36,436 bases of DNA from Deltaproteobacteria bacterium (GCA_016183125.1 JACPFG010000063.1:1-36436), one strand, 5' to 3'. Positions 1-25,366 are shown, counted from the stretch's first letter. A program made the numbers and translations. The notes: generated by a model from the sequence alone, not told the origin.

Positions 1-1
1 C

Positions 2-190
2 ATGCGGGAACACGTGCTCGCAGTCTTGAGGCACCCTGATACAATGGAAACGAAGCCCGATGGGATCAAGGTTGCGCAGGGCAGCTTCGATAAACAGCAT
101 GTATTGCGCGTTGTTTTTAGACGAGATGGTGGCGGGATTAAAGTGATTACCTTTCATCCCGGTGATCGGGGGCGTTATGAAAAGAAATAA
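2..190 (+). CDS. DUF4258-like (RelE-superfamily) putative toxin, probably 5'-truncated by the window edge
   Basis: Short basic ORF with the pattern VL..PD...LRVVF......KVITF; overlaps the start of a DUF2283-like gene. Confidence 0.6.
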   Translation: MREHVLAVLRHPDTMETKPDGIKVAQGSFDKQHVLRVVFRRDGGGIKVITFHPGDRGRYEKK

Positions 191-392
191 GGTGAAGATT
201 ACATATGATCGAGACGCGGATGTCCTGGCATTTAACGTGGGTGGAGGTAAACTCGACCACGCCGAGGAGATGTGGCCCTTTATTGTCCATTTTAGCAAGG
301 CAAAAAAACCCATTTATCTCGAGATCGTCGACGCGAGCAAAATGATTCCGCAGATCGTTGGCGCTGCGGTGCATACCAAGGCGGCGGCATAA
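177..392 (+). CDS. DUF2283-family putative antitoxin
   Basis: ATG at 177; KITYDRDADVLAF...IVHFSK..KPIYLEI.DASK matches the DUF2283 pattern as I recall it. Confidence 0.75.
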   Translation: MKRNKVKITYDRDADVLAFNVGGGKLDHAEEMWPFIVHFSKAKKPIYLEIVDASKMIPQIVGAAVHTKAAA

Positions 393-470
393 CTCCTCAC
401 CCCCGGCGCCACCACGCAGGACATCATCGCGTGGCTAAAAGGTCCCCTGAGGGAGGGGGATTTTAAGTGA
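393..470 (+). pseudogene. Orphan gene 3' end resembling the C-terminus of a cobalamin-binding (methylmalonyl-CoA mutase small subunit-like) protein
   Basis: Reads LLTPGATTQDIIAWLKGPLREGDFK* with no start codon; resembles the (L/I)FTPG..T..I..(W/F/Y) end of B12-binding domains. Confidence 0.55.
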
Positions 471-872
471 TTACGGTTTTCCGGGTGGCTGGAAGAGGCG
501 GAGGTCCGAGTGGGCGCGGATATCCTGAAAGATGCCGTCGGCGCTCCAAAGGGGGACTCGTTCCGAAATCGCGTGCATTGCGATGAGGCAATCCATTGTG
601 GTGATTGTCACTCCCTTCTGCCGCATGCGAAGATACAGTTTCGGCGCTTCGGTCCAGAGGCGGTTAGGGAGGGGGAGCACGGGAATCGGGGCGAGCAACT
701 GGGCAATCGCTTCCTGATGTTTACTGTTGAGAGCGCCCTGAAGCAATTCGGTCAGGATAAGCGGGTTAATGCTCGCGTCGTTGGACTCGATGAGCGAAAT
801 CAGCGCCTCGTTGATCGCGGGGACACCGCCCCGCCAGCCGGCGATCCAGATGCTCGAATCAATCAAGGGCAC
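471..872 (-). CDS. vapC: PIN-domain toxin (VapC family)
   Basis: LIDSSIWI, ILTELLQG, TMDCLIA and LWSAD give the four conserved acidic PIN positions; 133 aa. Confidence 0.9.
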   Translation of the reverse strand: MPLIDSSIWIAGWRGGVPAINEALISLIESNDASINPLILTELLQGALNSKHQEAIAQLLAPIPVLPLPNRLWTEAPKLYLRMRQKGVTITTMDCLIAMHAISERVPLWSADGIFQDIRAHSDLRLFQPPGKP

Positions 873-1065
873 GGTTTTTTCTCATTCGGCGGACGTTAGG
901 ATTCCACGCGGGAAACCGGCCAAAACTCTTGATGAGTTTCACCCGCTTCCGTTGCAGGAGGAATTGCTCGAGCGCGCTGCGAATAGCCCCGCTGAGCGTT
1001 GCGGCCCCCGTCTCCCGCCGCACCTGCCGAATCAGAGTGTCCGCAATTTGGATCGAGGTCCGCAT
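859..1065 (-). CDS. vapB: VapB-type antitoxin (ribbon-helix-helix-like)
   Basis: MRTSIQIADTLI...TLSGAIRSALEQF; lies upstream of and overlaps vapC; ATG 1065 preferred over TTG 1074. Confidence 0.8.
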   Translation of the reverse strand: MRTSIQIADTLIRQVRRETGAATLSGAIRSALEQFLLQRKRVKLIKSFGRFPAWNPNVRRMRKNRALD

Positions 1066-1073
1066 GATATGCA

Positions 1074-1103
1074 ATAATAGATAAATTTGTAATATAATGT
1101 CAA
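1074..1103 (-). promoter_or_regulatory. Sigma70-like promoter of vapBC
   Basis: TTGACA (1103-1098), 18 nt, TATTAT (1079-1074), then 8 nt to the ATG. Confidence 0.6.
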
Positions 1104-1116
1104 GCGATACTTCATA

Positions 1117-2897
1117 TCACGCCGGGACGTTTTCCACGGCGCGGATGATGGCGGCGTCCACGCCGTATTTCTCAAGGAAGGCGCGGCGTTCGGTTTTCAT
1201 CTTCGCAACCCAGCCACGATATTGCTCCGCGCGGCCATTGGCCTCGAAAAACCGGCGGGGCTCCAGGATCTCCGCCGGGACCTTGGCAAGCAGGGCCTTA
1301 TTTTCCGTGGCGTTCACGTCCACGATCTCGTAGCCGAAGTCCGGGTCCCGTTTCCAGACGACGCGCCCGCCGAGTTCGCGCGCCCGCCGAGCAGGGCCTC
1401 CAGCATGGCTGACGAGTGGGCGATCTTCACCTTCAGCGCCTTCCCAGCCTCCACATCCCGCTGATCGCCCGCGATATAACCGGTATTCATCAGCCACATC
1501 GTGCAGTGTTTCATCGTGGCGGCCAGTTCGTTAAACCGTTTGGCCTGTAAGGCATGGCTGCGTGGAAAGAAGGGCTGCGTAAACGGCGAGCGGGTTTTTC
1601 CACGTTCCTTCCCGGCCGCGCCCGTCTTCGATGTCTCGCCGAGCATGAAATAACCCGCCGCTTGGGCGGGGGAGGTGAACCGGACAATCCCCGGCGTTGC
1701 GGCCTCCGGTCCCTCATCGCGATTGAGCGTCCCCATCGAGCCGATCGGCGGCAACTCTCTCGTTAAGTCCGCGGCGTCACGAATGGCCGAGAGCGGAATG
1801 ATTGATCGCCCGTTCTGCGTCCATACGACAAAGTCCCAGCCATCCCTCGGCGTCCCGCCCGCATCCACGATCTCTTCGAGTCGGACTTTACCAGCGGCAT
1901 ACGCCTCGACGTTCTCCTTTGACGCGCCAGTCAGGCAGAGCGTTTCTTTCCATTTAGCGACCTCGGCCGGCGTGAGCGTCGTCTTGCCAAAGTCATACGT
2001 CCCGTCGGAATTCACGAAGACATTCTCCACCCACGCGCTCGGATGGATCGTCCCGTCGTAGATCACCGGCTCGGTCTGCTCTGTGAGGCCGAACGTCTTG
2101 GCAAAGCAGCCGTTCTCGGTGACGGAATACCGCCCGCCCGGCCAGAGCGTAATCATATCGTCCTGGACCGGATGAGTGAGTTCCCCTTGTTTGCTAAACG
2201 TCGTCGTCGTCTTTCCCGTCCCCGAAAGTCCCATGATCGCCATCGTCTCGCGCTTCGCGCTGATCTGGACTACCTTCGCGCCGGCATGGAGGACGAGGCC
2301 ATTGCGCTGATAGAGATAATCGCAGAGCATCCGCAGGACGCCTTTTTTACTCTCGCCAAAATAATCGGGACCGAGAATGTAGGTCGTCCAATTTTGGAGA
2401 TCGACGAGGATTGCCTGCCGCCCCGGCATCCCCTCGGCAGGGCAATCGGGTGTGAAAATAATCCGGAATGTCGGTGCAAACGGCTTGGCAAGCTGCTCTT
2501 TCGATTCGACCGCTGCGCGGGGAAAGCTCAAGACCTGCTGCATCCCGGCGATGTTCGCCCCCTCGCATGAATAGATCCACTCGACGCCGACCGCCTCCTT
2601 GCCAAGCCCGTAGTAGCCCTCTATGGCGACTGCCTCGCCCTGGGCCTCGAGGTATTTTTTCTGGATTGCGATCAACGCCGCCGCCTTGGCCGGGTCCATC
2701 ACCTTGCCGGAGTAGCTGCCGGCCTCGGATTCCGGGGCGAGGCAATAGGTGTACTGGGCCATCCGCGCCTTGTTCCGCGAGATCTTGTTGAGATTGCCAT
2801 ATTTCGTTTCCATCACCGCCGGCGTGTGTTTCAGCGCCAGCGCGCGGAGTTCCTTCTGCGAGGGGTTGCGAATCATTCGAAGGTTGGAGGTTTTCAT
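1117..2897 (-). pseudogene. pckA: Phosphoenolpyruvate carboxykinase (ATP), frameshifted near the 3' end
   Basis: YFGESKKG, LHAGAK, GLSGTGKTT, QDD and ENGCFAKT motifs; AAGGA RBS before ATG 2897; a 17-bp duplication-type insertion at 1362-1391 moves the C-terminal ~80 aa (VVWKRDPDFGYEI...) into another frame. Confidence 0.85.
1362..1391. repeat. 13-bp direct repeat CGCGCCCGCCGAG x2 separated by TTCG
   Basis: Copies at 1362-1374 and 1379-1391; removing 17 bp restores the pckA frame. Confidence 0.9.
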
Positions 2898-3000
2898 CGT
2901 AATTGTCCTTTCCACGGCGAGGAAATAGCATTCCAAACACCAGGCGCAATGATTAAAAAAATCTTGCGCGAAGCAGGTCCCTCGGCTACAGCACGCCCCA

Positions 3001-4206
3001 AGGGGACGGAAAGTCGGCATCGTTGGCGCGGCGATTACGCCGTGTAAGAGCCACTGGGTGGAGCGGACGTACTACGGCCTCTCCCAGATGGCCGTGCGCG
3101 ATTGCCTGCGCGATGCGGCGATAGGAATCAAGGACGTGGATGCCGTCGTCTACGGGATCTATAACGACATCTTCGAGATGGCCGCCATCCCGGAACACCC
3201 GCTCCAAGGGATCATCGGGATGACGAACAAGCCCGGCATTCGCGTCACAAACGGCGGCGCAACAGGTGCTTATGCCATGCACTGCGCGTATGCGTGGGTG
3301 GCGAGCGGCCTCTACGACACGGTGATGGTCTTGGGCGTCGAGCGGGCAACCGACTGCTTCGACTTCGAGTCGATGACCGAGACACCGGAAGTGATCAAGA
3401 CGATCGGTTGGTCGGGCGATACCTTCTTCGAGCGGGAGCTCGGCTGGACGGCGTCGGACAGCTATGCCGAGGTGGTCCTCGCCTACATGGACGATCATCC
3501 GGAGGATCTCAAACCCGAAATATCCGCCAAGATCAGCGAGATTCTCTGCCAACAGGCGAAGCACAATCCGTTCGCCCAGCGCCGCGACGAGGTGGTCACC
3601 GCCGAGATGGCGATGAACTCCCGGTACGTTGTCTATCCCTTTAAACTCCTCGAGATGTGCGTCTATTCGGAAGGTGCCGGGGCACTGATCTTTGCCTCGG
3701 AGGAGAAGGCCAAGGCCATTGCGCGGAACAACGGCAAGGCCCCCATCTGGATCGCGGGTGTGGGTGCCAGCAATGAGCATAGCGTCGCCGGGCCGGATTA
3801 CACGCGCCACAAGTATATGGGACGGATCTGGTCGGATCATATCGCGGCTGAGAAGGCCTACGCAATGGCCGGGATCACAAAGCCGGTGCAAGAGATCCAG
3901 GTCGTGGAGCTGCACGACGCGTTTATCAAGCAATTACAGATCACGATGGGGGAGATGGGATTCGTCCCGATCGGGCGGACCGATGCCCTCGTGGAAGAGG
4001 GGATCATGACGCCGGGCGGGAAGGTGCTCGTGAATCCATCGGGGGGACTCACGTTCGGCGGACATTTTGTTGGCGGGTCGAACATCTTTTCGACCTGGAG
4101 CGCGCGGCGCGAGATGCTCGAGCGTGGATTTGCGCGCGGGTTGATCCACGGGACCGGCTCAACGGTATCCCAGTACGGCGTGGTGTTTGTTTTGGAGCGG
4201 AGCTAA
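3001..4206 (+). CDS. Thiolase-family (SCP-x-like) protein; start codon anomalous
   Basis: Family-typical N-terminus RKVGIVGAAITP lies upstream of the called GTG 3058; AKHNPFAQ, ELHDAF and VNPSGGL..GGH motifs; codon 3001 is AGG where ATG is expected. Confidence 0.85.
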   Translation, partial: RGRKVGIVGAAITPCKSHWVERTYYGLSQMAVRDCLRDAAIGIKDVDAVVYGIYNDIFEMAAIPEHPLQGIIGMTNKPGIRVTNGGATGAYAMHCAYAWVASGLYDTVMVLGVERATDCFDFESMTETPEVIKTIGWSGDTFFERELGWTASDSYAEVVLAYMDDHPEDLKPEISAKISEILCQQAKHNPFAQRRDEVVTAEMAMNSRYVVYPFKLLEMCVYSEGAGALIFASEEKAKAIARNNGKAPIWIAGVGASNEHSVAGPDYTRHKYMGRIWSDHIAAEKAYAMAGITKPVQEIQVVELHDAFIKQLQITMGEMGFVPIGRTDALVEEGIMTPGGKVLVNPSGGLTFGGHFVGGSNIFSTWSARREMLERGFARGLIHGTGSTVSQYGVVFVLERS

Positions 4207-4208
4207 CT

Positions 4209-5207
4209 ATGGCAGGGGAGAAGGTTCAAAAAGTGATTCCGGAGCATATGATTCCGCCGGTGGCCTCGGAGATCGTCGAGCGGGGGGGCGAGCGCTACCT
4301 CCAATCGAACGAGGCGATGTTTACATTTTACAAGCGGACGAAGGGGGAGTTCTCGAAATATTTTCTGGGCCTGCGCGATGAGATGAAAATCTGGGGTGTG
4401 CGCTGCCCCAAATGCGGGATCGTCCGCGTCCCGCCGTTTCAGCTCATGTGCCCCGATTGCGACTTTTGCGACCTCAAATGGGTGGAGATGCCGCACACCG
4501 GCGTGATGAACTCCACGCCGCCGATCACGTATTTTGCCCACTCGCTCTTTCAGTCGTGGGTCCCGTTCGGGCGGGGTCGGGTCGTCCTGGAGGGCGCCGG
4601 CACCGCGCTCCCGGTACATGTCTTTACGACGAAGGGCGTGCTCACCCCGTTTATCTTCAAGAAAGGGACGCCGGTGAAGGTGGTGTTCCGCACCGAACGG
4701 TTCGGCAAACCGACCGACATTTTCGCCGTGCCGCTCGCCGAGTTGAGCGAGGCGCAAAAAAAGAAATCACCATTGATGGAAACCGACCTCGATTTTTCCG
4801 CTCCGGTCGAGCCGAAGGTTGGCGCGGCGACAGGAGCGGCAAAAGCGAGCTATGCAAAGGCGCTCGATCTGCTGAAGGAACTGGCGGTCGGCGTGACAAA
4901 GAGCCCCCGCGCGCAGCACAACCTCGCCGGTTGGACCCGCCGGATTGCCGTTCGGACAAGCAGCGGCGATTTCGGCCTTGTCATAGCCGAGGGCCGGCTG
5001 TCCGTAACGGATAAGACGCCGACCGGCACACCGGACCTCGTCATGGTCGCCGACGATCCGCAACTCTTCGTGGACTGGCTCACGTTCAAAGAGGCCCTCA
5101 CCAACGCCATCATCGCCGGCAAACTTTGGATCAGCCTGAACCGCGAATTCACCACCATCTTCAAACTCGACCGCCTCCCCCGCTCCGTCGCACGGGATCG
5201 GGGATAG
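4209..5207 (+). CDS. DUF35 (Zn-ribbon + OB-fold) protein fused to a C-terminal SCP2-like domain
   Basis: CPKC...PP...CPDC Zn-ribbon; C-terminal PDLVM....AII.GKL.I pattern; directly follows the thiolase, the usual DUF35 partner. Confidence 0.8.
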   Translation: MAGEKVQKVIPEHMIPPVASEIVERGGERYLQSNEAMFTFYKRTKGEFSKYFLGLRDEMKIWGVRCPKCGIVRVPPFQLMCPDCDFCDLKWVEMPHTGVMNSTPPITYFAHSLFQSWVPFGRGRVVLEGAGTALPVHVFTTKGVLTPFIFKKGTPVKVVFRTERFGKPTDIFAVPLAELSEAQKKKSPLMETDLDFSAPVEPKVGAATGAAKASYAKALDLLKELAVGVTKSPRAQHNLAGWTRRIAVRTSSGDFGLVIAEGRLSVTDKTPTGTPDLVMVADDPQLFVDWLTFKEALTNAIIAGKLWISLNREFTTIFKLDRLPRSVARDRG

Positions 5208-5266
5208 TGCCCGCTGTTTCTTTTCAGTTGTTTGCCAACGCTTTTCTATGGTAGAAAATACGCGGT

Positions 5267-5677
5267 ATGGTTGGTGGAGCGCTGAAAAAGGCGACACAGC
5301 AATGGATCCGTCATAGCGAAGCGGATTTCGGTACCGCACAGTTTTTATTGCGGGCACGGAAATATCTGTATGTCGGGTTCATGTGTCAGCAGGCCGTGGA
5401 AAAACTGCTGAAGGCGGTCATTTGTCAGGAAATGGACGTGACACCGCCGCGCACGCATAACCTGATTGCATTGGGCGATTTGATTGATGCGCGCATGAAC
5501 GACCACCAACGGGGCATCATGACGGCGTTAACCGAGTATTACCTGAATAATCGGTATCCGGAGGTGAAGGTCGCGCTTGCCAGACGATTGACGGGCCCGG
5601 TGGCGCGCCAGGTCCTGCAGGGCACGGAGGCAATCATCCAATGGCTGCGCGAGCAATACCGGATACCGAGCAGGTGA
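5267..5677 (+). CDS. HEPN-domain protein (HEPN/MNT TA pair)
   Basis: FMCQQAVEKLLKA, PPRTHNL and YLNNRYP motifs. Confidence 0.9.
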   Translation: MVGGALKKATQQWIRHSEADFGTAQFLLRARKYLYVGFMCQQAVEKLLKAVICQEMDVTPPRTHNLIALGDLIDARMNDHQRGIMTALTEYYLNNRYPEVKVALARRLTGPVARQVLQGTEAIIQWLREQYRIPSR

Positions 5678-6003
5678 TCCGCACATTTGTGCGGCGCCTC
5701 AATCGCGTCTTCCCACTGGAGGCGGTGTTCCTTTACGGGAGCCACGCGCGAGGGTGGCAGGATGCATGGAGCGACATCGACCTGGCGGTTGTGTCCAGGC
5801 GCTTTGACCGGGCTTCCCGTGCAACGTGGGAAGCGGTTCGTCGTATTGCTCACGCGATCTCGCCCATATTGGATGCCCGTCCCTTCGGTGCCCGGGAATT
5901 TGCGCGTTACGAGCGCGGCGATTTTGTCCACGAGATTCACCGGACCGGCAAACAGATCTACCGTAACGGTCGTTTTGCGGTCGCTGGGGCGCGCGGATAT
6001 TGA
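5641..6003 (+). CDS. Minimal nucleotidyltransferase (MNT) antitoxin
   Basis: LYGSHARG...SDIDLAVVS signature; overlaps the HEPN gene end. Confidence 0.9.
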   Translation: MAARAIPDTEQVIRTFVRRLNRVFPLEAVFLYGSHARGWQDAWSDIDLAVVSRRFDRASRATWEAVRRIAHAISPILDARPFGAREFARYERGDFVHEIHRTGKQIYRNGRFAVAGARGY

Positions 6004-6059
6004 CCACGATCTTCGTGCTCGACCGGCTGCCTCGTTCTGTTGCGCGTGATCGGAAGTAG
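6003..6059 (+). repeat. Diverged duplicate of the last 57 bp of the DUF35-SCP2 gene (5151-5207)
   Basis: TTIFVLDRLPRSVARDRK* versus TTIFKLDRLPRSVARDRG*; 42/57 nt and 16/18 aa identical. Confidence 0.95.
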
Positions 6060-6069
6060 GGGTAAACAT

Positions 6070-6864
6070 ATGCCAAAGGTTCAGACAACGACGGGGATCA
6101 ACATCTACTATGAGCAGGAGGGCGCGGGGAAGGACGTGATCTGCATTGCGGGCCTGTCGGCGGACCATACAACATGGTCTCCGGTCCTTCCCCAACTGGC
6201 CTCGTAGTGCCGCATGTTGATTTTTGATAACCGAGGCGTAGGCCAGACAGAGGCCCCTCCAACACCCAATACGATTCGGGTGATGGCCGATGACACCATC
6301 GCTCTTATGGATGCCTTGGACATTGAGCGGACCACTCTCGTAGGGCATTCAATGGGCGGAGCCATTGCGCTGCAGATGTCTCTGATTGCACCCGATCGGA
6401 TATCGCAAACGGTCATTTGCGCGTCCGCCGCCAGGCTACCGTATCCATCCGTCGCCGTCATAAAGGTTGCCGTAAAATATCGAGAGATGGACCTCGATCC
6501 AACACTCATTTTCGAGACGACCTTTCCGTGGATTTACGGCGAGGCATTTTTACGAGACGAAGCCAGGGTGAGAACTCAGATGGATCAATTACTACAAAAC
6601 CCATATCCACAGTCGCTCGACCATTTTCGCGGGCAAGTGGCTGCATGCGAGTCGTTCGATTTGGAGCGAGCGATCAGCGAAGTCAGAACGGATACGCTCG
6701 TGGTTGCAGGCAATGAAGATGTCCTTACGCCGCTTCGATGCTCGGAATATCTCCATCAGAACATTGCTGGTTCCCGGTTGGTCGTGATGAACAACTGCGG
6801 ACATATGATCCAACACGAACAGCCTTCAAAACTGGCCGAGACCATTCTCACCTTTCTCCACTAA
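6070..6864 (+). pseudogene. Alpha/beta hydrolase (PcaD/enol-lactonase-like fold) with an in-frame TAG
   Basis: ATG 6070 gives MPKVQTTTGINIYYEQEGAG...; TAG at 6205-6207; then DNRGVG, GHSMGG, GNEDVLTP and CGH motifs in the same frame. Confidence 0.85.
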
Positions 6865-6910
6865 AGAGGGGGGGGGGGGGCAGCTAAAACTTCTTGTGTT
6901 TACCATCATG

Positions 6911-6936
6911 AGTGCTGTATGCTGTAATACAGCACT
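6911..6936. promoter_or_regulatory. Perfect 10-bp inverted repeat, probable antitoxin operator
   Basis: AGTGCTGTAT-N6-ATACAGCACT just upstream of the GGAGGA RBS of the antitoxin gene. Confidence 0.6.
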
Positions 6937-6949
6937 ATGGAGGACGGAA

Positions 6950-7192
6950 ATGGCCCATCGCACCCAGTTGTATCTCGACGACAGCCAGTATCAATTCGTG
7001 AAGGACCTGGCGCGGGCGGAGCGGAAATCGATCGCCCAGCTCTTCCGCGAATGGATTGAAGAGCGCCGGCATTTGCGCGCACAAAAACGCTACGAGAAGG
7101 ACCCATTTTGGCAAATGCGCGGCATTGGAGCAAGCGGACGATCGGATATTGCCAAGCATTTTGACGATTACCTCTACGGGGACAAACGATAA
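6950..7192 (+). CDS. CopG/RHH-type antitoxin
   Basis: MAHRTQLYLDD...KSIAQLFRE...G...SG.SDIA..FDDYLYG, a pattern typical of antitoxins upstream of PIN genes; good RBS. Confidence 0.8.
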   Translation: MAHRTQLYLDDSQYQFVKDLARAERKSIAQLFREWIEERRHLRAQKRYEKDPFWQMRGIGASGRSDIAKHFDDYLYGDKR

Positions 7193-7538
7193 CCGTGCAG
7201 CAAGTTTTCCTCTTGAACGATATCTTCGAGCGGAACAACCGTTGCTGTTGACGACCCATCTCATCTTTGCCGAAGCGAATTCCCTGATTACAAAACGGTT
7301 GGGCAAATCCGTAGGGGAGCGCACGGGGGACCTGTTGCAGCGCAGCGATTTTGTGCAGTTGGTCTTTCTTGACGAGGTTGTCCATCGTGAGGCATGGAAT
7401 CTGTACAAAAAATATCGGGACAAAGACTTTGACTACATTGATGCCACGAGCTTCGTTTTTTGCAAACGCCGCGGGATCCGCGAGGTCCTCACCTTTGACC
7501 GCCACTTCGCCCAAATGGGTTTTCGGATCGTGCCCTAG
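7188..7538 (+). pseudogene. vapC: PIN-domain toxin missing its start codon and N-terminal ~25 aa
   Basis: TTHLIFAE, DYIDATSF and TFDRHFAQMGF present; no start and no first D-T-S strand. Confidence 0.8.
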
Positions 7539-7577
7539 CACCTGGTACCTGGCACCGAATGATAATGCGGTGTAATG

Positions 7578-8723
7578 TCATTCGTGGATGGCGAGCAGGG
7601 ACGGCAGGGTTTTGAGACATTCCTCGAAGGGGATCACCTGGATCCCTTCCATCTCCATCCGCCGGTCGCCGCCGTAGATGCAATAGGTTCGTGCCGAGGG
7701 ATAGTCAGCGCGAAAGGCTTTGAGACCGCGCAACGCATCTGAGCCGACGCGGGCAGTGCGCTTGACTTCGAAGGCGTGGATTCCTTTCGGGCCATAAGCG
7801 ACGAAGTCAACTTCCAGTCCGGTCGCGGTCCGCCAATAGAAGAGGTCATAATCCAGCCCCTCGTCTGCATTCACGGCCTTCAGTTCCTGATAGAGGAGCG
7901 TTTCATAGGCCGCGCCTTCTGCCTCTTCCGGCCGGTCGAGCGGGCCCATCGGGCGCAGCGTGCGATAGATCCCCACATCAAAAAAGTAAAACTTGGGATG
8001 GGCTGCCATCCGCCGCTTGGCGCGTTTGGTGAAGGCCGGAAGGCGCTCCGCCAGCAGCAGGTCCTCTAGAATAACGAAATATTGTTCGACGACTTTGCGC
8101 TCGACCGCACACTCCCTTGCCACTCCGGCAATACTCAGGATGGCCCCTTGGGAAAAACTCGCCGATTCTAAAAAGCGGGTAAAGGCCGCCAGATTTCTGG
8201 TCAGGCCCTCCTGCTGGACCTCCTCTTTCAGATACGTCTGGACATACGATTCGAGATATCGCTTCGGATCGGCCTCCGTGTAGGCGCACGGCAACTGGCC
8301 AAACCGGAGGGAATGTTCTAGTCGAAAATCGTTGCTCAACTCCCGGGCCGTCAAGGGATGCATCATCAACGTCAGGGCCCGCCCCGCCAGCAAGTTGACC
8401 CCCTTGCGCCGCAATTTTCGGGCGTTCGACCCCGTCAGAACAAATTTGTAGCGACGAGTTTCGATCAGCCGATGCACCTCGTTCAGGAGTTCCGGTACTT
8501 TTTGGACCTCATCGAGAATAATCCAGTCGCTAAACCCCTGCGGCACCAGCTGCTCCAATCGGCCGGGGTGAGCCAGCAAGTCATTAAATGTCTCCGCGGC
8601 GAGTAAGTCCACGTAGACGGCCCGAGGAAAGGCAGAGCGAACCCAGCTGGTCTTCCCAGTTCCTCTCGGCCCAAAGAGGAAAAAACTCTTATTTTGCGGG
8701 TAGTTAATAATTCTGGAATACAT
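7578..8723 (-). CDS. AAA+ ATPase (AAA_14 + DUF4143 type) with C-terminal PD-(D/E)XK-like domain
   Basis: GPRGTGKT, ILDEVQK, LTGS, PKFYFFDVG and EVDFV....AFEVK motifs. Confidence 0.9.
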   Translation of the reverse strand: MYSRIINYPQNKSFFLFGPRGTGKTSWVRSAFPRAVYVDLLAAETFNDLLAHPGRLEQLVPQGFSDWIILDEVQKVPELLNEVHRLIETRRYKFVLTGSNARKLRRKGVNLLAGRALTLMMHPLTARELSNDFRLEHSLRFGQLPCAYTEADPKRYLESYVQTYLKEEVQQEGLTRNLAAFTRFLESASFSQGAILSIAGVARECAVERKVVEQYFVILEDLLLAERLPAFTKRAKRRMAAHPKFYFFDVGIYRTLRPMGPLDRPEEAEGAAYETLLYQELKAVNADEGLDYDLFYWRTATGLEVDFVAYGPKGIHAFEVKRTARVGSDALRGLKAFRADYPSARTYCIYGGDRRMEMEGIQVIPFEECLKTLPSLLAIHE

Positions 8724-8757
8724 AACTCCATTTTACATAGTAATATGGAGTTATCAA
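8722..8757 (-). promoter_or_regulatory. Promoter of the AAA+ gene overlapped by a perfect 10-bp inverted repeat
   Basis: TTGATA-16-TAAAAT-6-ATG; ATAACTCCAT (8722-8731) and ATGGAGTTAT (8745-8754). Confidence 0.55.
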
Positions 8758-8823
8758 CTCCAAAATACATAACCATCCCAAACCGGTTGCAAAACGATGA
8801 GGCGTCGGTTAGGTTCCCCGGCC

Positions 8824-9912
8824 ATGGCGGGCGACAATAAAAACACACGGGTAGCGGTGGCGATGAGCGGGGGGGTGGATAGCTCGGTGGCTGCCGTCTT
8901 GCTCAAAGAGGCCGGCTACGACGTGATCGGGATCACGATGGCCCTCTGGAGTTGTCACAAGGGTGAGACCGCCAGGAAGAAGACATGTTGCTCGCTCACC
9001 GATGTCCAGGATGCCAGGGCGGTGTGCGAGCGGATCGGGATTCCGCATGTGGTGGCAGATTACCGTACGGAGTTTCGGGAGAAGGTGATCGATCATTTTG
9101 TGTCTGAGTATAAACAGGCTAGGACGCCGATCCCGTGTATCGGGTGCAACCAGTATTTTAAGTTCGAGCGTCTCTGGCAGACCGCACACGAGGAGTATGG
9201 CGCGGAGTTTATTGCCACTGGTCATTACGCGCGGATTGCGGATAATGGGAGCAGAAGCCTTCTTAAGGGAAGGGACACCCACAAAGACCAGTCCTATTTT
9301 TTATTCGTCATGACGCCGGAACAGTTGCGCCACAGCCTCTTTCCGGTCGGCGGGTTGACAAAAGCGGAGGTGCGGGAAATTGCTGCCCGGCACGGCTTGG
9401 CGACGGCCGAGAAAATAGAGAGCCAGGAGATCTGTTTTGTCCCGGATAACGATTACGCAGGATTTATCGAGGATTATTACCCGGAAGCGGTGGGGGCGCC
9501 CGGGGCGTTTGTCGATCAGGATGGGAGCGTTATCGGTCGTCACCGCGGTACGCACGCCTATACGATAGGCCAGCGCAGAGGATTAGGCGTGGCGGTGGGC
9601 GAGCGGCAGTATGTCACGGCCATCGATCCCGTGAACGGCCAGGTGAAGCTTGGGCGCGAGGAAGAGCTCTATCGCGCCGGGCTGACGGCAACTGGAATGA
9701 ACTGGATCGTCGATCTCCCTCGAGAATTTGCCGCGAACGCAAAAATCAGGTATAAGCACGTTCCGGCGCCGTGCCAGGTGCGTATCTTGGACGACGGGGC
9801 GACACTCGTGGACTTCACTGAGCCGCAGCGGGCGATCACGCCTGGCCAGGCGGTGGTCTTCTACGATGGAGACACGGTGCTTGGTGGTGGGTGGATTGAG
9901 CGGGCAGTGTAA
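8824..9912 (+). CDS. mnmA: tRNA 2-thiouridine(34) synthase
   Basis: AMSGGVDSS, TPIPCIGCN, ATGHY, KDQSYFL, ESQEICF, TIGQRRGL and ITPGQAVVFY motifs. Confidence 0.97.
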   Translation: MAGDNKNTRVAVAMSGGVDSSVAAVLLKEAGYDVIGITMALWSCHKGETARKKTCCSLTDVQDARAVCERIGIPHVVADYRTEFREKVIDHFVSEYKQARTPIPCIGCNQYFKFERLWQTAHEEYGAEFIATGHYARIADNGSRSLLKGRDTHKDQSYFLFVMTPEQLRHSLFPVGGLTKAEVREIAARHGLATAEKIESQEICFVPDNDYAGFIEDYYPEAVGAPGAFVDQDGSVIGRHRGTHAYTIGQRRGLGVAVGERQYVTAIDPVNGQVKLGREEELYRAGLTATGMNWIVDLPREFAANAKIRYKHVPAPCQVRILDDGATLVDFTEPQRAITPGQAVVFYDGDTVLGGGWIERAV

Positions 9913-9913
9913 A

Positions 9914-15436: not shown

Positions 15437-15532
15437 ATGGGGTCCGAATACTCCTGGCGCGGGCCGTGTCAAGCCCCATTTTCAGCTACTCTGCAGGGGC
15501 AATAACACTTTGAAGAGATGGAGGTGAGGGGT

Positions 15533-15547
15533 ATCTTCCCGCTTGAC
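15533..15547 (+). promoter_or_regulatory. 15-bp motif ATCTTCCCGCTTGAC, copy 1, upstream of the Rhs gene
   Basis: Exact second copy at 25298-25312; both are preceded by AGGGG and end in a TTGAC -35-like element. Confidence 0.6.
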
Positions 15548-15620
15548 ACGCCGCGGTGTCTACTAATAGTCACCACCGTAGACCTACATTTACAGCACAC
15601 GGTGTCCTAAGGGGGCCCAT

Positions 15621-21600: not shown

Positions 21601-21929
21601 ACGTTGCGTCATTTCTCTACGAGACTCCACAGCTCATTAAAGAAACACCTAAAATTATCGAAAAAATCGGGAAGGCAAGCAAGATTTACAAAAACGCCAA
21701 GTCGGTTGGAGGTGGGTCTGCGTCAGGAAAATATATACTGAAGAAGGGGACTGGGCTCGTTTCTGAATATTTAGATGTGCTCAACGATGCGACGGAAATA
21801 ATTTCCGGTGAGGACATATTGGAACATGCGGAAGATTGGATGATGTCACCGCAGCCGCAAGACACGACGATGATGTTGCAAGGATCGTATTTTAATTTAC
21901 AGACTACGACGGCTCCGACATCAAAATGA
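15621..21929 (+). CDS. Rhs/YD-repeat lipoprotein with N-terminal golvesin-like, CARDB, Ig-like and carboxypeptidase-regulatory-like domains, DUF6531, Rhs core and ~215-aa C-terminal domain
   Basis: Frame extends upstream of GTG 15687 to (ACG)KRFAPVILTLLLAAIG-C lipobox; ESDESDN, DPVNTATGN, many YD repeats and YYMRARYYDP..GRFISKDP...NNPLRAADPLGL core. Confidence 0.9.
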   Translation, partial: TKRFAPVILTLLLAAIGCGEDEVPRLEPSGNPAASSQTTDVAKNTPSPSLDVYVDDIDSGFSKYGTSNWTEAWTGWPTPGGHMWYTWNTLKYVENSAMWMPNLQCSGKYEIQAYIPSENAKTSKAKYEIKSDVGWSNSIISQLANPGKWVALGGSGTTYSFTKGASDRYVKLTDVTGEISSKGLFYRIAFDAIKWIYKEKLSNMGFTLTAPNSGTAWSKDDTCLSVKWSTQGDVPGGVRIHLYKGGTSPSQFVKSLIGSTPNNGSACVDASALKDQPLASDYVIGISNNFPYCDGYVWAFSNSFKIAAPDLTGYQLPGWGGKLVGSGVSGTNSNSALYTCKVAYFDVGIKNEGNGDNKKTISNRLLIDGINYGTWTESPLSAGSYTSEIDMPVSGITAGTHTVKVEIDYPNNIPESDESDNAVSGSFAWQPCNNPSVIITSPANGSSTTSSSVTVSGTCNDSDGDLKTYIVTVNGTSLPPGNISGGSAAFAKTVSLNVGSNKIEATCTDQQGLVSNVAMITVTRTQLGGIAGTVTSTKGGAIAVASVTANGPVGVTTSTASDGSYSFTGLQPGTYTVTASSAGYYSTSQSVNVQTNTTAIANFSLVPVPKPILSVAPTAVSVTMPSGSLNGTQQVIIQNNGDANLQYWLVVPPPSWLTIKRNGGALVSTSVSPPLAPGAKDTLTFYFNSNQVSSNQAALLVVGSNDTAKGDTGIDVTMTIKASSPPPPQYPAPSTPTFTPTFSGSCTLINACAKDPVNTATGNYTYSHTDLNIRSRGPSLLFARTYNSFDPTIGPLGLGWTHSFHVYALEYTKDDGSPGDVYIRWGTGRTDWYQRNADGTYTPAPGLFDAFVKNGDGSFTLVEKNKTVWNFQGSGRLASVADRHGNAMTLTYEDAEPKRLVAATNALGEQLIFSYQSGDPLKLADVWDVQGNRKILFTYEGDRLTTVTDANGNPFTFEYDAADRLTKIIERDGKPLVTNAYSANDPTDRRVLTQQDGLGNTTAFSYDTPTPWETTVTDPATEEFPGGRKHIYSYDALYRLRRHTAPSGMDIVTYDYNDNHQRTKMTDANGKVTLWEYDPRGNLTKITEAEGAPEEVVTTWTYYPGTDLVDLHVTPLGLTLKHYYEGDDLTKVEGTGPDIEPFAVEYTYLPTGEVATVKDPMQYVTTFDYNGKGELEQIVSPPTTASPGGEIASFGYDSSHRPTSVADPYLQSLGKAALYTYDKNDRITKTTDGLTRETTITPDKRDLVEKIAAPNGIVTYAYDDAGRLVSVTTPTGTVTYGYNASHERTSATSPGNHTTTYSYDPLGYLAKVTDPTNRSLTLDADPMGALKSLANSLNHTVGVAPDLLGRAKEITDPVGRKIELQYNDAGQVTSRAGLFDPANPATKVTTTTVYDVLGRLRKITTPANGEMAAQYNLNADIIGITNPNGHTTSWVQGPLGRPEAERFDGVTKRTFGYYPGGRIKTATNAKSETTTFLYDEAARLKEIQYADGAKRTIAFKGQTDRVEAITLVETDGTTRSRSFTYDSAGRVATATDPWGNTISYTYWPDGQVKTITYPGNKTVSYAYDDAGRLATVTDWLTPPGVTTYGYDTAGRLDTITYPNGATAVYAYENDGRVKSIAHRKADGTILASQTVGYDGRAHVKAIELVPEPTAALEGKELDYTPNAEDQYAQIGGLNLEYDPVGRLTTPFVDGGPGMAYTFDVRDHLAQATTTGGTVSYISGPEGERIEQSAGGATTRYVVDTTSRLSSVVAELDGANTPTAYYIYGVGLLARIPANGQNARYYHQDAQQNIAALTDASGNVTDSYFYHPFGQVLTQTGSTPNPYRFAGALGVENDPTGLYYMRARYYDPAQGRFISKDPIGMAGGMNLYGYVGNNPLRAADPLGLFSWKTFGTGLLELGKAALSVVETVGNAFLAGGSLAIFQPEGTAALGLAAVGNLDDAFVNTTNSFNNIVGAFSDKPAEKLITQGPYREFLQATLGSTKLLDVPQEAADVASFLYETPQLIKETPKIIEKIGKASKIYKNAKSVGGGSASGKYILKKGTGLVSEYLDVLNDATEIISGEDILEHAEDWMMSPQPQDTTMMLQGSYFNLQTTTAPTSK

Positions 21930-24577
21930 AACGAATGTGGCAGACAATTTGCGTAACATTCATCGGCCTAAGTATCGGCATTTCGAGCGTGATTGCCTCG
22001 CCGATCATCTTCACCTACGACACCACGGGACGGCTGCAGTCCTTCAGCCTCCCATCAGGTTCGTCGGCTACCTTCACCTACGACGCGAACGGAAATCGCC
22101 TGCATGAGAGCGTGAAGCCACCGCCGGATATAACCGCGCCAACCGTTGCCGGCACAAGTATCCCGGATGGCGCGACTGCGGTCCCGATCAACGCGCCGAT
22201 CACGGTCACCTTCAGCGAGCCGATGGACGCGGCGACGATCACGACGAGTTCGTTCCAGGTGGCGGATGGGACCGGGCCGATCGCGGGGACGGTGAGCTAC
22301 GCAAACAGTACCGCGACGTTCACGGCGACCGCGCCGCTGAATTATTTCACCGACTATACGGCCACGGTGACCACCGATGTAAAAGATGCCGCGGGGAATC
22401 CCTTGGCTGCGCCGGTGAGCTGGAGCTTTAGGACGATCGTGCCGCCGGTGATCGGTGCGGCCGGTGGCGGCGGGCATACGGTTACAATCGGGACCGATGG
22501 ATCGGTCTGGACGTGGGGCTACAACTCGCACGGACAATTGGGGAGCGGATCGCTCGTCGACCTAAACGCGCCGGCGCGAGTGAATGGCGTGACCGGGAGC
22601 GCGACCGCCGTGGCCGGCGGAGACTCCCATACCGTGGCCGTGGCCGGCGGTGTGGTCTGGAGTTGGGGACGGAATACCGTGGGGCAACTGGGTGACGGAA
22701 CGACAACTGACCGAAATGTCCCTGTCCAGATCGGTGGATTGCCGCCGGTGACAGCCGTGGCCGCGGGTGTCCTTCACGCCGTCGCGTTGACGACGCCGGC
22801 GGCGGGCGGCGAGGTCTATGCCTGGGGAAGCAATACGCTCGGCCAAGTCGGCGATGGGACGACAATGCAACAGACAAGTCCGGTGAAGGTCCCAGGCATC
22901 GCCGGCGCCACGGTCATCAGCAGTCGGGGAAATCACACGCTTGCCTTGAGCGGTGCCGATGGCACCGTCTGGACTTGGGGGTTCAATGGTTGGGGACAAC
23001 TGGGCGATGGCACCACGACGACGAGTACAACACCGAAGCAGGTGCAAGGCCTCACCGGCGTAGACGCCATTGCCGCCGGGTTCGGGCATTCGCTAGCAAA
23101 GGTGAACGGCACCGTCTACGCGTGGGGACTGAATGCCAATGGACAACTGGGCGATGGGACGACGAACAATCAGTCGGCGCCTCAGGCGGTCGCGGCGCTG
23201 GCAGGAATTGATATCGTCGCCATCGCGGCAGGGGCGAACTTTAGCCTCGCCCTTGATGCCAATGGCGCCGTGTACGCCTGGGGCCTGAACAGCAGCGGGC
23301 AGTTGGGCGATGGGACATTCACAGATCAGTTGAATCCGAAGACAATCGGGACGTTCACGGGAGCGGTCGGAATCGCCGCCGGGGGAAGCCACACCATGGT
23401 CTGGAAGGCCGATGGAACGATGTCCTCATGGGGCTACAATTTCTACGGTCAGGTTGGGAATGGCTCGGCAACGTATGTCGCATACACGCCGACACCTGTT
23501 TTGACGAACGTACAAGCGGTATCCAACGGCGGGAAACACACGCTCGCGTTGCTGGCCGATGGCACGGTGCGGGCCTGGGGATCAAATAGCAACGGGCAAT
23601 TGGGCGATGGGACGACAACGAATCGGGATGCGCCGGTGGCGGTGCCCGGACTCACCAACGTCACCGATATCGCCGCGGGAAGCCGGTTCTCCGTCGCGGT
23701 CGAAAACAACGACACCGTCCGGGTCTGGGGGATCAACAGCTCGAAGGAATTGGGATTGGGCGCCGCGAGTGCCGATGTCCTGCAACCGACGCCATTGCCG
23801 GGGCTCAGCGGCGTGACGGCCGTTGCGGCGGGTGATTTTAGCACGGCGGCGATCGTGGGTGCGACTAACGACGTATGGACCTGGGGCTCCAACAGCAACG
23901 GCCAGTTGGGGAACGGGAGCTATGCGAATCCAGGCGTCCCCGCGGCGGTGCCCGGCCTGACAGGTGCAACAACCATTACCGGTGGCGGACGTCATTTCCT
24001 TACCTTGAAGAGTGACAAAACGATTGTGGCCTGGGGACGGAATGCAGATGGCGAACTGGGCGACGGAACGAAAGTCGAGCGGACGGCGCCTGTGACGGTT
24101 GCCGGACTCACGGACGTGATCGCGATCGGGGCGGGGCATAGGCACTCACTCGCGGTGACCGCCGATGGAACGGCGTTCGCCTGGGGGCTTAATTCCAGCG
24201 GGCAACTCGGCGACGGGACATTCGCGCAACACTCGGCGCCCGCGCCGATATCGAATCTCGTAAATGTCGCAGCCGTCGCGGGCGGGGCATCTCATTCGCT
24301 GGCGCGGCTATTGGATGGCTCTGTTCAGGCCTGGGGATTCAACCTCCTCGGCCAACTTGGCGACGGCACGGCGGTTACGACCGGAAAGAATTTGCCGGTT
24401 CAGGCGGTGGGTCTTGCCGGCATCGAGTTTGTGGACGCCGGTACCGGCTCATCCTCCTATGCCCTCGACCTCGCCACCGGCACGCTCTATGAGTGGGGCT
24501 GGAACGGCGCCACCGCCTTCGTAGATGGCACGATCCCATGGGTACTCGTGCCCACCGCCGTCCTGTGGCCGGAGTAA
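21926..24577 (+). CDS. Secreted protein: YD repeat + SbsA/Big_5-like Ig domain + RCC1/BLIP-II repeats (about two propellers)
   Basis: Signal peptide; YDTTGRL...YDANGNR; ITVTFSEPMD...VKDAAGNPL; about 13-14 W(T/A)WG.N..GQLGDGT-type repeats; ATGA overlap with the Rhs stop. Confidence 0.9.
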   Translation: MKRMWQTICVTFIGLSIGISSVIASPIIFTYDTTGRLQSFSLPSGSSATFTYDANGNRLHESVKPPPDITAPTVAGTSIPDGATAVPINAPITVTFSEPMDAATITTSSFQVADGTGPIAGTVSYANSTATFTATAPLNYFTDYTATVTTDVKDAAGNPLAAPVSWSFRTIVPPVIGAAGGGGHTVTIGTDGSVWTWGYNSHGQLGSGSLVDLNAPARVNGVTGSATAVAGGDSHTVAVAGGVVWSWGRNTVGQLGDGTTTDRNVPVQIGGLPPVTAVAAGVLHAVALTTPAAGGEVYAWGSNTLGQVGDGTTMQQTSPVKVPGIAGATVISSRGNHTLALSGADGTVWTWGFNGWGQLGDGTTTTSTTPKQVQGLTGVDAIAAGFGHSLAKVNGTVYAWGLNANGQLGDGTTNNQSAPQAVAALAGIDIVAIAAGANFSLALDANGAVYAWGLNSSGQLGDGTFTDQLNPKTIGTFTGAVGIAAGGSHTMVWKADGTMSSWGYNFYGQVGNGSATYVAYTPTPVLTNVQAVSNGGKHTLALLADGTVRAWGSNSNGQLGDGTTTNRDAPVAVPGLTNVTDIAAGSRFSVAVENNDTVRVWGINSSKELGLGAASADVLQPTPLPGLSGVTAVAAGDFSTAAIVGATNDVWTWGSNSNGQLGNGSYANPGVPAAVPGLTGATTITGGGRHFLTLKSDKTIVAWGRNADGELGDGTKVERTAPVTVAGLTDVIAIGAGHRHSLAVTADGTAFAWGLNSSGQLGDGTFAQHSAPAPISNLVNVAAVAGGASHSLARLLDGSVQAWGFNLLGQLGDGTAVTTGKNLPVQAVGLAGIEFVDAGTGSSSYALDLATGTLYEWGWNGATAFVDGTIPWVLVPTAVLWPE

Positions 24578-24590
24578 GAGAGGGTAGGCA

Positions 24591-24618
24591 GTGAAAGGTA
24601 CCAGAGGGGATATGCGGC
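24591..24618 (+). repeat. 28-bp direct repeat, left copy (orphan RBS + ATG)
   Basis: GTGAAAGGTACCAGAGGGGATATGCGGC; 26/28 identical to 25339-25366. Confidence 0.95.
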
Positions 24619-24625
24619 TGAGCAA

Positions 24626-24910
24626 TCACCTCAGGGTAATATCCACTCGCTTTCCCACCACTGAGGCAAATTTGATCAGGGTGTCCAGGCCGATGTTGGC
24701 CTCCGGGTCACTGATAATCCGCTCTACCTGGGATTTGCTGGTCCCCATGAGGCTGGCTACTTTCCTGATCGATAGGTGCGACCTGGTCATAGCGGTCTTG
24801 AGACGATCCGCCAGCCGTAATCGTTCCTTTTCTTTTTTGAAATGGACCGCAAACATCGGGTCCTTGAGGTCCCTTTCCAAATCTTTGTGAAAATCGCCGC
24901 TCGTTCTCAT
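24626..24910 (-). CDS. XRE-family HTH antitoxin (HigA-like)
   Basis: L.DP.FA..F...LSIRKVASLMGTSKSQVERI...N..LDTL.K; lies downstream of the RelE-like gene. Confidence 0.85.
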   Translation of the reverse strand: MRTSGDFHKDLERDLKDPMFAVHFKKEKERLRLADRLKTAMTRSHLSIRKVASLMGTSKSQVERIISDPEANIGLDTLIKFASVVGKRVDITLR

Positions 24911-24923
24911 AAAATCCCCCCCT

Positions 24924-25241
24924 TTATTCGCTCATCCGATTATAAGCCGTATCAATCTCCCGTTGAGGCGTTTTGTCCGACTTTTTCCGGAAGCCGTGCA
25001 GCAACACGACCTTCCCTTCATGGTAACAATAGAAAACCCGATGCGCCCCCGCTCTCAATTCAAACAACCCTGGATATCCTCCCATCTTCTTGGCGTGAGG
25101 CTCGTTCAAAACAACCTTCTCCGAGAGATGGGCAATCAGGGCCTTCACCTTCGCCCTCTCTTTGTCAGAAAGGGTTTCAATATAAGTCCTGACCGGTTGA
25201 TCGCCACGAGCAGTCTCATAGTAGGTAACCGGGATACTCAC
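24924..25241 (-). CDS. RelE/ParE-superfamily toxin (HigB/Gp49-like)
   Basis: YYETARG..PV..YI, EPHAKKM, LFELR, RVFY and LLHGFRKKSDKTP..EI..A motifs. Confidence 0.9.
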   Translation of the reverse strand: MSIPVTYYETARGDQPVRTYIETLSDKERAKVKALIAHLSEKVVLNEPHAKKMGGYPGLFELRAGAHRVFYCYHEGKVVLLHGFRKKSDKTPQREIDTAYNRMSE

Positions 25242-25249
25242 CGGAAAGA

Positions 25250-25278
25250 AGCGTACCTATATATGGGGGCAAAGTCAA
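25250..25278 (-). promoter_or_regulatory. Sigma70-like promoter of the HigBA-like module
   Basis: TTGACT-17-TACGCT, then 8 nt to GTG 25241. Confidence 0.6.
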
Positions 25279-25297
25279 TGAAGAATCAAGCCAGGGG

Positions 25298-25312
25298 ATC
25301 TTCCCGCTTGAC
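25298..25312 (+). promoter_or_regulatory. 15-bp motif ATCTTCCCGCTTGAC, copy 2, upstream of the S8 giant gene
   Basis: Identical to 15533-15547. Confidence 0.6.
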
Positions 25313-25338
25313 CTCGGTTGTTCTTGGTTCTAAAGACC

Positions 25339-25366
25339 GTGAAGGGTCCCAGAGGGGATATGCGGC
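25339..25366 (+). repeat. 28-bp direct repeat, right copy (functional RBS + ATG of the S8 gene)
   Basis: GTGAAGGGTCCCAGAGGGGATATGCGGC; ATG at 25360. Confidence 0.95.

Follow-up and report, generated by a model that had tools for sequence, protein, structure and literature searches.

Introduction

How chromosomal toxin-antitoxin (TA) pairs and small defence genes move outside plasmids, phages and transposons is an old open question. The closest described precedent is insertion with long target duplication, outlined for restriction-modification units that carry no transposase or integrase and whose flanks are unique direct repeats, tens to hundreds of bases long (Furuta, Abe and Kobayashi 2010, PMC2853133; PMC3874152), some of which overlap the 3′ end of a gene according to the Figure 3 legend of PMC2853133. 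Here we describe small TA cassettes that have the end of a neighbouring gene duplicated on either side of them, in a 36,436-nt stretch of DNA from a Deltaproteobacteria bacterium (GCA_016183125.1, JACPFG010000063.1:1-36436; hereafter the window), which is the complete contig C101 of a metagenome bin of 1.77 Mb, 142 contigs and 88% completeness, and we follow the same footprint through the other contigs of the bin and through other genomes. The cassettes resemble this precedent in being small addiction-type units without an integrase, with repeats that vary by locus and in part overlap a gene 3′ end; they differ from it in their cargo, which does not consist of restriction-modification genes, as well as in their orthologue-like repeats, cassette arrays and joints clustered at stop codons. 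No application of insertion with long target duplication to TA pairs was found among the titles of the 18 papers using the phrase since 2011, although the supplements of PMC2853133 may hold TA cases. The sequencing runs holding the window are groundwater metagenomes from one study.

Several other known arrangements share parts of this architecture. Prophages and islands inserted in the 3′ ends of protein or tRNA genes, such as phage 21 and e14 in icd, carry a replacement end that may differ from the displaced one at synonymous sites, so that a complete gene stands on one side and a displaced 3′ fragment on the other, as here; such elements, however, bring their own integrase and an identical core and span tens of kilobases, whereas the inserts described below have no integrase and no common core and measure 0.1-1.8 kb. 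Homology-facilitated illegitimate recombination, reportedly observed in laboratory crosses by de Vries and Wackernagel and by Prudhomme and colleagues in 2002, usually with deletions, can likewise trap foreign DNA beside a conserved gene, between one homologous anchor and one illegitimate joint, without any mobile-element enzyme. Integron cassette arrays, clusters of attC sites lacking integrases (CALINs) and the pdif modules of Acinetobacter consist of compact, often promoter-less and often TA-encoding cassettes with a repeated unit between them. The present cassettes also form arrays in which new members stand beside a fixed end, but their repeated unit is the coding end of the neighbouring gene rather than an attC or Xer site, and no IntI was found. 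Finally, the minimal mobile elements of Neisseria are integrase-less islets swapped by homologous recombination in conserved flanking genes, but they lack the duplicated gene end.

A gene end repeated on both sides of a HEPN/MNT pair

The clearest example in the window (case 2) lies behind gene X (4209-5207, + strand), the partner of a thiolase gene at 3058-4206, whose whole protein has no Pfam or NCBIfam match. The working end of gene X (5151-5207) reads TTIFKLDRLPRSVARDRG and closes with the stop codon TAG. It is followed by a leader reaching from this stop codon to the HEPN start (5208-5266, +), which is unlike the sequence after the orphan's stop, by a predicted HEPN toxin gene (5267-5677, +; Pfam PF05168, 74.9 bits) and by a predicted MNT (minimal nucleotidyltransferase) antitoxin gene (5641-6003, +; Pfam Polbeta and NTP_transf_2, PADLOC PDC-S09) with its stop codon TGA at 6001-6003. 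The orphan copy of the gene X end (6003-6059, +), TTIFVLDRLPRSVARDRK with its own TAG, has as its first base the last base of the MNT stop codon, and the ATG of an alpha/beta hydrolase gene (6070) stands 10 nt beyond it. Coordinates of short genes, here and below, come from lists of open reading frames (ORFs) and are approximate.

The two ends agree at 16 of 18 residues and 40 of 57 bases, the 17 differing bases leaving no identical run longer than 8 nt, and their likeness is bounded on the right by the stop codon and on the left by the MNT stop. When the last 14 residues of each long ORF were compared by BLOSUM62 with stop-anchored peptides 150-5000 nt downstream, this pair scored 55; about 2.06 million random comparisons yielded none at 50 and one at 40. 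All 55 metagenome homologues of gene X with a readable end terminate in ...FKLDR..., and thus the orphan is an end of that family. Residues 41-190 of gene X, and that region only, match proteins in 10 of 40 relatives, and a DNA search of the same 40 relatives with the case 2 region matched only its own genome. Among 58 metagenome loci with gene X homologues (46-81% identity), none carries a second copy of the end and none is close enough to serve as an empty site. The nearest relatives of the window HEPN protein are at most 40% identical within the phylum and at most 43% elsewhere, and no donor was identified.

The joints are also spanned by separately assembled contigs. Logan contigs from four runs of one groundwater study, which may be the source samples, bridge the case 1 joint (below) and both case 2 joints with 0 differences, the case 2 orphan joint being spanned in three runs. 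No contig of these four runs skips a cassette or forms a case 2 circle joint, which for a single study says nothing about absence.

Two further cassettes in the window

Case 1 is cut by the start of the contig. The ORF at 2-190 (+) appears by eye to be the 3′ part of a DUF4258-like toxin gene, resembling the ORFs upstream of DUF2283 in contigs C12 (DUF4258) and C68; its 62-residue fragment has no Pfam match. The last gene of the cassette is antitoxin-like (162-392, +; DUF2283, PF10049, 28.1 bits), one of three DUF2283 genes in the genome, and directly behind it lies the orphan C-terminus of a B12-binding mutase small-subunit-type gene (393-470, +), reading LLTPGATTQDIIAWLKGPLREGDFK followed by a stop. 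Translated, 393-467 gives a peptide with weak similarity to the C-terminus of a B12-binding-domain protein of about 145 residues, found in 46 of the phylum's 92 other genomes (E <= 1, best 0.0019); the ORF of this protein often lies beside the thiolase cluster that the window contains too. The pattern ...F(T/L)PG..T..I..W(V/L/I)... stands at the protein end in all seven B12-binding loci fetched. By eye, the likeness may begin a few codons earlier, within the DUF2283 end. The partner copy is unseen because the contig begins inside the cassette and the 88%-complete assembly contains no second copy of the 393-470 end; synteny around the phosphoenolpyruvate carboxykinase (PEPCK) gene in two genomes of the same family did not reveal the source gene. 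A single contig of run X2, in which place 436 is joined back to place 1 (side 40, likeness threshold 90), gives a weak hint of an upstream copy.

Case 3 involves a gene start. The ribosome-binding site and start codon of a 1516-residue putative lipoprotein ORF (25334-25366, +; ATG 25360) are repeated directly at 24586-24618 (+; ATG 24612). Between the two copies, on the − strand, lie a predicted HigA-like HTH antitoxin gene (24626-24910; Pfam HTH_3, stop codon 24626-24628) and a predicted HigB-like (Gp49) toxin gene (24924-25241; PF05973, 70.6 bits). Seven nucleotides separate the orphan from the higA stop. The stretch 24591-24618 matches 25339-25366 at 26 of 28 bases, the sole such match in the genome (E 7.6e-5), which extends to 33 nt.

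The domains and the layout of two small adjacent or overlapping genes are, by Pfam, those expected of type II/VII TA modules (HEPN/MNT, HigBA and DUF4258/DUF2283), the DUF4258 call for ORF 2-190 being made by eye. The preliminary description of this DNA had reported three modules each accompanied by an orphan gene terminus. The score of case 2, with its empty controls, and the 26/28 identity of case 3 bear this out, and the case 1 orphan is indeed a C-terminus, with its partner off the contig; the assumption that all three orphans are gene termini holds for cases 1 and 2 and not for case 3.

Recurrence in the genome and cargo

Applied downstream of all long ORFs of the bin, the stop-anchored scan returned 15 pairs scoring at least 50 and 21 scoring at least 40, against 0 and 1 at random. 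A nucleotide self-comparison yielded further pairs; with one filter for both orientations it gave 218 direct versus 14 inverted repeats, most of the direct ones being repeats within genes. Both copies are visible for 17 TA cassettes, two of them in the window. Insert sizes range from 0.1 to 1.8 kb, more than 25 inserts of 0.5-1.7 kb containing cargo alone, and the direct repeats measure 19-151 nt, with a length that varies by locus and falls below 30 nt at several (21 nt in C106, 19 nt in C48, 28 nt in window case 3).

The other 15 come from 20 repeat-bounded loci that we chose, whose 118 ORFs were run against Pfam: 12 loci contain TA genes (15 cassettes), two contain other genes and six have no Pfam match. 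C91 carries three successive cassettes (RHH/PIN, MNT/HepT and MNT/HepT), and C3 carries HEPN with a MarR-MNT protein as well as HTH_17/Doc; the remaining TA cargo comprises DUF4258/DUF2283 (C12), DUF2283 (C68), HTH_3 (C17), HicA (C28), PemK (C22), MNT/HEPN (C141), BrnT/CopG (C136, both under the curated cut-offs), RHH/PIN (C106), Phd/ParE (C48, ParE under the cut-off) and BrnT/BrnA (C30). The repeat-bounded cargo other than TA genes is a DUF4143 ATPase (PADLOC candidate PDC-S01) and an alpha/beta hydrolase. The former, a DUF4143/AAA_14 protein encoded at 25581-26729 of C136, is flanked by a duplicated metallopeptidase gene end, with a hairpin repeated on both orphan sides. The cargo is thus mostly TA pairs, plus a candidate defence ATPase and a repetitive extragenic palindromic (REP)-like non-coding repeat described below; the footprint, which had been proposed as a property of TA modules, is shared by the PDC-S01-type ATPase, the hydrolase, ORFs without matches and the REP-like repeat. 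In C28, the HicB-like partner of HicA (994-1241, −) is split into frames of 46 and 47 residues, with no Pfam match.

The joints tend to fall at stop codons. In 13 of the 14 protein-end pairs of the genome the repeat ends 0-3 nt from the target's stop codon, the DUF4258/DUF2283 cassettes begin 4 nt past the target stop without a promoter, and the last ORF of the cassette often stops at or within the repeat, as in window cases 1 and 2 and at loci L109, L117, L098 and L106.

Enrichment by family and occurrence in other genomes

Flanking repeats were counted at a score of at least 18, which was reached by 39 of 400 random 360-nt intervals (16 of the 400 reach 29). By this measure repeats flank two of three DUF2283 loci, three of five HEPN loci, four of seven HepT loci (the one in C18 being doubtful, as it stands beside a repeat protein) and two of 33 PIN (VapBC) loci, loci that share a contig not being independent of each other. 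Taken together, non-PIN TA loci (9/15) exceed the random intervals (39/400) at p 5e-6, while PIN loci are not enriched, so that the enrichment at TA loci expected from the preliminary description is found outside VapBC and not within it.

The phylum comprises 93 genomes, and 23 others of these encode relatives of the window HEPN protein, at most 40% identical. Of the 29 HEPN loci fetched from other genomes of the phylum, 10 lie between strong repeats (30-151 nt long, 760-1810 nt apart), against a random baseline of 16/400 at a score of 29; 3 of 11 HEPN loci from other phyla do so too, and the pattern is therefore no artefact of a single bin. The MNT gene runs up to or into the repeat at L109, L117, L098 and L106, stops 6-16 nt from it at L100, L102 and L093, and at others 31-102 nt from it. 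Where the TA pair is convergent with its target gene (C17, C28, L093, L103 and L106), the orphan lies on the 5′ side of the pair; with distances from −24 to about +100 nt, the rule that the orphan sits at the last stop codon of the module and the working copy on its promoter side does not hold in general.

Comparison of related genomes suggests that cassettes turn over at the working end. The congeneric genomes G011 (locus L093) and G026 (L103) share an outer TA cassette (74% nucleotide identity) behind the same gene, whereas the HEPN/MNT pairs beside that gene are unrelated, and G011 holds three copies of one gene end. In G052 and G053, too, unrelated HEPN/MNT cassettes adjoin the working end of the same target gene. 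A search of G055, a congeneric genome, gave no match to the L094 region. Genome pairs named in PMC2701414 for the presence or absence of HEPN-MNT or other TA pairs are Thermus thermophilus HB8 versus HB27 and Deinococcus radiodurans versus D. geothermalis.

Enzymes and cassette ends

No transposase or integrase was detected by Pfam in the 118 ORFs of the 20 loci. In the assembly as a whole, whose 88% completeness leaves absence unproven, XerC and XerD were the only tyrosine recombinases found, neither a serine recombinase, a reverse transcriptase nor Ku was found, and integron integrase models scored far under their cut-off; transposases were sought only as Y1_Tnp. Homologues of ComEC and DprA are present, and are also found in non-competent control genomes. 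The cassettes show no terminal inverted repeats beyond chance (27 of 28 inserts score at most 10, the null 95th percentile being 9), and inspection by eye of 19 loci revealed no shared boundary motif, the junction check that the preliminary description had called for. The repeats of different loci are unrelated and have no common core, although some loci do have identical blocks. The absence of recombinases and inverted repeats from the cassettes, as first described, is upheld, with XerC and XerD alone being found, but the genome does encode three RAYT-like (REP-associated tyrosine transposase) genes elsewhere. The cassettes differ from DNA transposons and miniature inverted-repeat transposable elements in lacking such inverted repeats and in a target duplication that is not of fixed length (19-151 nt), and from integrase-mediated islands or cis-mobilizable elements (CIMEs) in that neither a tyrosine nor a serine integrase was found for them and no identical core is shared (the longest run in case 2 being 8 nt).

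How the two copies differ

The 12 pairs compared in the genome hold 92 differences, distributed 11:14:67 over the three codon positions, with 56 synonymous versus 20 non-synonymous codons; for duplication followed by decay, a rough model gives about 46% third-position differences and about 57% non-synonymous codons. Pairs also found at the nucleotide level show the same bias (8:8:36; p about 6e-4 or lower against the decay model). In C14 (5 of 5 codons, including AGT versus TCG), C70 (8 of 9) and C59, an identical block is followed by one recoded at nearly every codon. The array in C91 contains four different versions of one aldolase end, and these, as well as the middle copy in G011, retain an open frame and a homologous stop codon yet differ in the manner of orthologues. 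Such differences fit the earlier proposal that the cassettes ride on gene-end homology from diverged lineages.

Other repeats are identical or nearly so (C141, 30/30; C106, 21/21; C93, 34/34; L093, 91/92; L103, 42/43). The metallopeptidase orphan by the ATPase insert keeps the lineage-specific tail RSEE while its conserved GLLGG is broken, which marks it as a decaying copy of the same lineage, made in place. Given such identical repeats and this decaying orphan on the one hand, and the orthologue-like pairs on the other, duplication in place has to be combined with input from diverged lineages. A codon-usage test for the foreign copy came out at 28 versus 28, and neither this nor the metallopeptidase orphan supports the view that the working copy is imported and the orphan is the native end it displaced. 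Two further readings, that the copies undergo gene conversion or that selection favours diverged repeats, do not predict the synonymous bias in the orphan.

A REP-like repeat with the same footprint

A non-coding repeat, about 75-125 nt long and containing two or three hairpins, has 14 matches in the genome (C59, C70, C77 twice, C27 twice, C130 twice, C134, C14, C87, C96, C62 and C127), directly behind protein and tRNA genes, and belongs to no Rfam family. The duplicated-end footprint accompanies it behind rpoD (C59), another protein gene (C70) and tRNA genes. Behind tRNA-Met and tRNA-Pro the duplicated 3′ part of the tRNA gene starts at about the anticodon loop; another copy of the REP-like repeat (C134) lies between two tRNA-like 3′ parts with the same anticodon-loop start, at a place where no tRNA gene was called. 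The 29-nt core of the repeat, 90-97% conserved, recurs in 21 of the phylum's 92 other genomes. At C130:4767-5022, the tRNA-Pro 3′ part together with the REP-like repeat forms a 109-nt unit duplicated in tandem (98% identical).

The three RAYT-like genes (Y1_Tnp) lie at C96:1339-2298 (75 bits), C46:6747-7613 (65 bits) and C91:2243-2857 (40 bits), all below the RAYT equivalog cut-off of 80 bits, and two of them are on contigs that also bear repeat-bounded inserts. In view of these genes, the repeat is probably a REP-type element.

Origin of the cassettes

We put at about one half the probability that these are small integrase-less selfish cassettes which enter with a long target duplication and then undergo homologous exchange with diverged relatives. 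A cassette would enter at a host gene end with a target duplication of variable length, 19 to about 150 nt, by an event like the insertion with long target duplication known from restriction-modification units; one whole gene end, or gene start, would stay with the gene and the orphan copy would come to lie beyond the far side of the cassette. Addictive cargo and selection against gene-breaking events would retain the insert. To judge from the pattern of substitutions, homologous recombination with diverged relatives would later swap the flanks or the entire repeat-cassette-repeat unit, with the gene end supplying the homology. Copies that often differ like orthologous coding ends, and several cassettes piled up behind one gene, would follow from such exchange.

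A number of observations weigh against this scenario. It accounts neither for repeats that end 0-3 nt from the stop codon in 13 of 14 pairs nor for a last ORF that ends at or inside the repeat, and it leaves VapBC, the commonest TA type here, nearly without the footprint. No empty site was found in 40 relatives searched by DNA, at the 58 metagenome loci or, for L094, in G055, the comparison by which the preliminary description had hoped to map the joints, so that the target duplication is deduced and not seen. Plain duplication would leave about 46% third-position differences where 73% are observed, and an added recombination step is therefore needed; this argument itself leans on an amino-acid scan biased toward synonymous pairs (ascertainment) and on a decay expectation that is our own rough model. 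Exchange of the RecA type is hard to square with the divergence of case 2 (17/57 bases, longest run 8 nt). Moreover, the cargo of the precedent consists of restriction-modification systems, for which DNA breakage is proposed as the cause (PMC2853133); breakage of that origin cannot apply to RNase toxins, and the TA toxins here are RNases or of unassigned activity.

A serious rival, although a distinctly less probable one, is import in one step on a gene end from a diverged donor in which the cassette already stands behind the orthologous gene, either by a crossover in the gene combined with a micro-homology illegitimate joint or by Campbell-type crossover of a circle holding the cassette and one gene end. 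The working end would then be imported, and the orphan would be the native end that it displaced. The orthologue-like differences between copies look as such import would have it, as do the internal orphans of arrays that keep an open frame and a homologous stop (T1 and T2 of C91; copy B of L093, 34 codons) and the unrelated HEPN/MNT cassettes at the working end of one target gene in G011/G026 and in G052/G053. Stop codons common to cassette and repeat could be micro-homology joints, but a random illegitimate joint would not predict ends trimmed to the last stop codon, and homology-facilitated illegitimate recombination predicts neither these nor arrays, both of which are seen here; no donor sequence for such a joint was found, the closest HEPN relatives being at most 43% identical. 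The polarity test ended at 28 versus 28, the metallopeptidase orphan is of the same lineage and decaying, the identical repeats at several loci require no donor, and homology as low as that of case 2, about 70% identity, would be an unlikely anchor. ComEC and DprA homologues are present, yet they occur in non-competent controls too, and the first placement of a cassette behind the donor gene is left without account. Improbable, in our estimate, is site-specific recombination in trans, acting on integrase-less, CIME-like satellites or on trimmed integrase-bearing islands with att sites in gene 3′ ends. With only XerC and XerD in the 88%-complete assembly, with a repeat of its own sequence and length at each locus and neither common core nor boundary motif, this would need independent trimming to have left more than 25 inserts of 0.5-1.7 kb with cargo alone, and would have to operate at 13 of 40 HEPN loci of other genomes as well; even so, the architecture is that of attL-element-attR with a replacement 3′ end, cassettes accrete in tandem at a single site, and the REP-like repeat lies behind tRNA-Met, tRNA-Pro and the tRNA-like part in C134 with the 3′ part repeated.

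We regard as very unlikely insertion by way of RNA or a single strand, with translation or hairpins fixing the ends, be it mRNA cut at stop codons and copied back or the work of RAYT-like HUH enzymes. Both joints do tend to stop codons, DUF4258/DUF2283 cassettes start 4 nt past the target stop without a promoter, and three RAYT-like genes coexist with a REP-like repeat of the same footprint; against this, no reverse transcriptase was found in the assembly, many cassettes have their own leader or promoter region or run opposite to the target, and the cassette ends bear no hairpins or inverted repeats. Nor is HUH/IS200-type transposition known for target duplication. That the footprint is chance similarity or an assembler join between strains, the latter named in the preliminary description among the things that would undo the proposal, already looks untenable: the random controls were empty, separately built contigs from three to four runs bridge the joints, and 13 loci show the footprint in other assemblies, some from other phyla, even if a metagenome bin of 142 contigs, with a frameshifted PEPCK gene and an in-frame hydrolase stop in the window, would invite the suspicion.

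The footprint ties TA mobility to the long-target-duplication route of restriction-modification units, which suggests that addiction-type genes share one host-driven entry route. More speculatively, and with the odds against it, the ends of housekeeping genes might act as integrase-free capture platforms, the cassettes travelling between two copies of the target end as homology arms and being installed by host recombination wherever an orthologue exists, while repeated events build integron-like arrays behind one gene and the stop-codon joints represent a defined cassette form. The duplicated gene end, often orthologue-like and sometimes arrayed, is in any case a concrete signature, one that can be counted and sought in whatever genome collection is at hand, and in annotation short orphan gene ends beside TA pairs are to be expected as by-products rather than errors.

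Other features of the window

Pfam recognizes five TA-like pairs in the window. Besides the three cassettes, these are VapB/VapC (471-1074, −) and an antitoxin-like ORF with a PIN protein (6896-7538, +), neither of which has a flanking repeat; nor does a DUF4143/AAA_14 ATPase gene (7578-8723, −) that matches the PADLOC candidate defence system PDC-S01. Within the latter, contigs of runs X2 and X3 miss one base at 7923 and one at 7926, and contigs of X2 and X4 hold 61 extra letters between 15510 and 15511; these differences are likely to be strain variants.

The PEPCK gene (1117-3020, −) consists of two overlapping frames (1314-3020 and 1117-1497), whereas relatives have one ORF of about 593-598 residues. 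This looks like a frameshift near the C-terminus, and the run contigs show no indel there. The alpha/beta hydrolase gene just 3′ of the case 2 orphan (6070-6864) has an in-frame TAG at 6205-6207 that divides it into two ORFs of one frame (6040-6207 and 6214-6864), which may reflect a pseudogene, readthrough or an error. Four ORFs of great length (2080, 883, 1516 and 2186 residues) lie in the region 15687-36434; judged by eye, the 883-residue ORF contains RCC1-like repeats, and the 1516-residue ORF, the target of case 3, has subtilase motifs and a lipoprotein signal.

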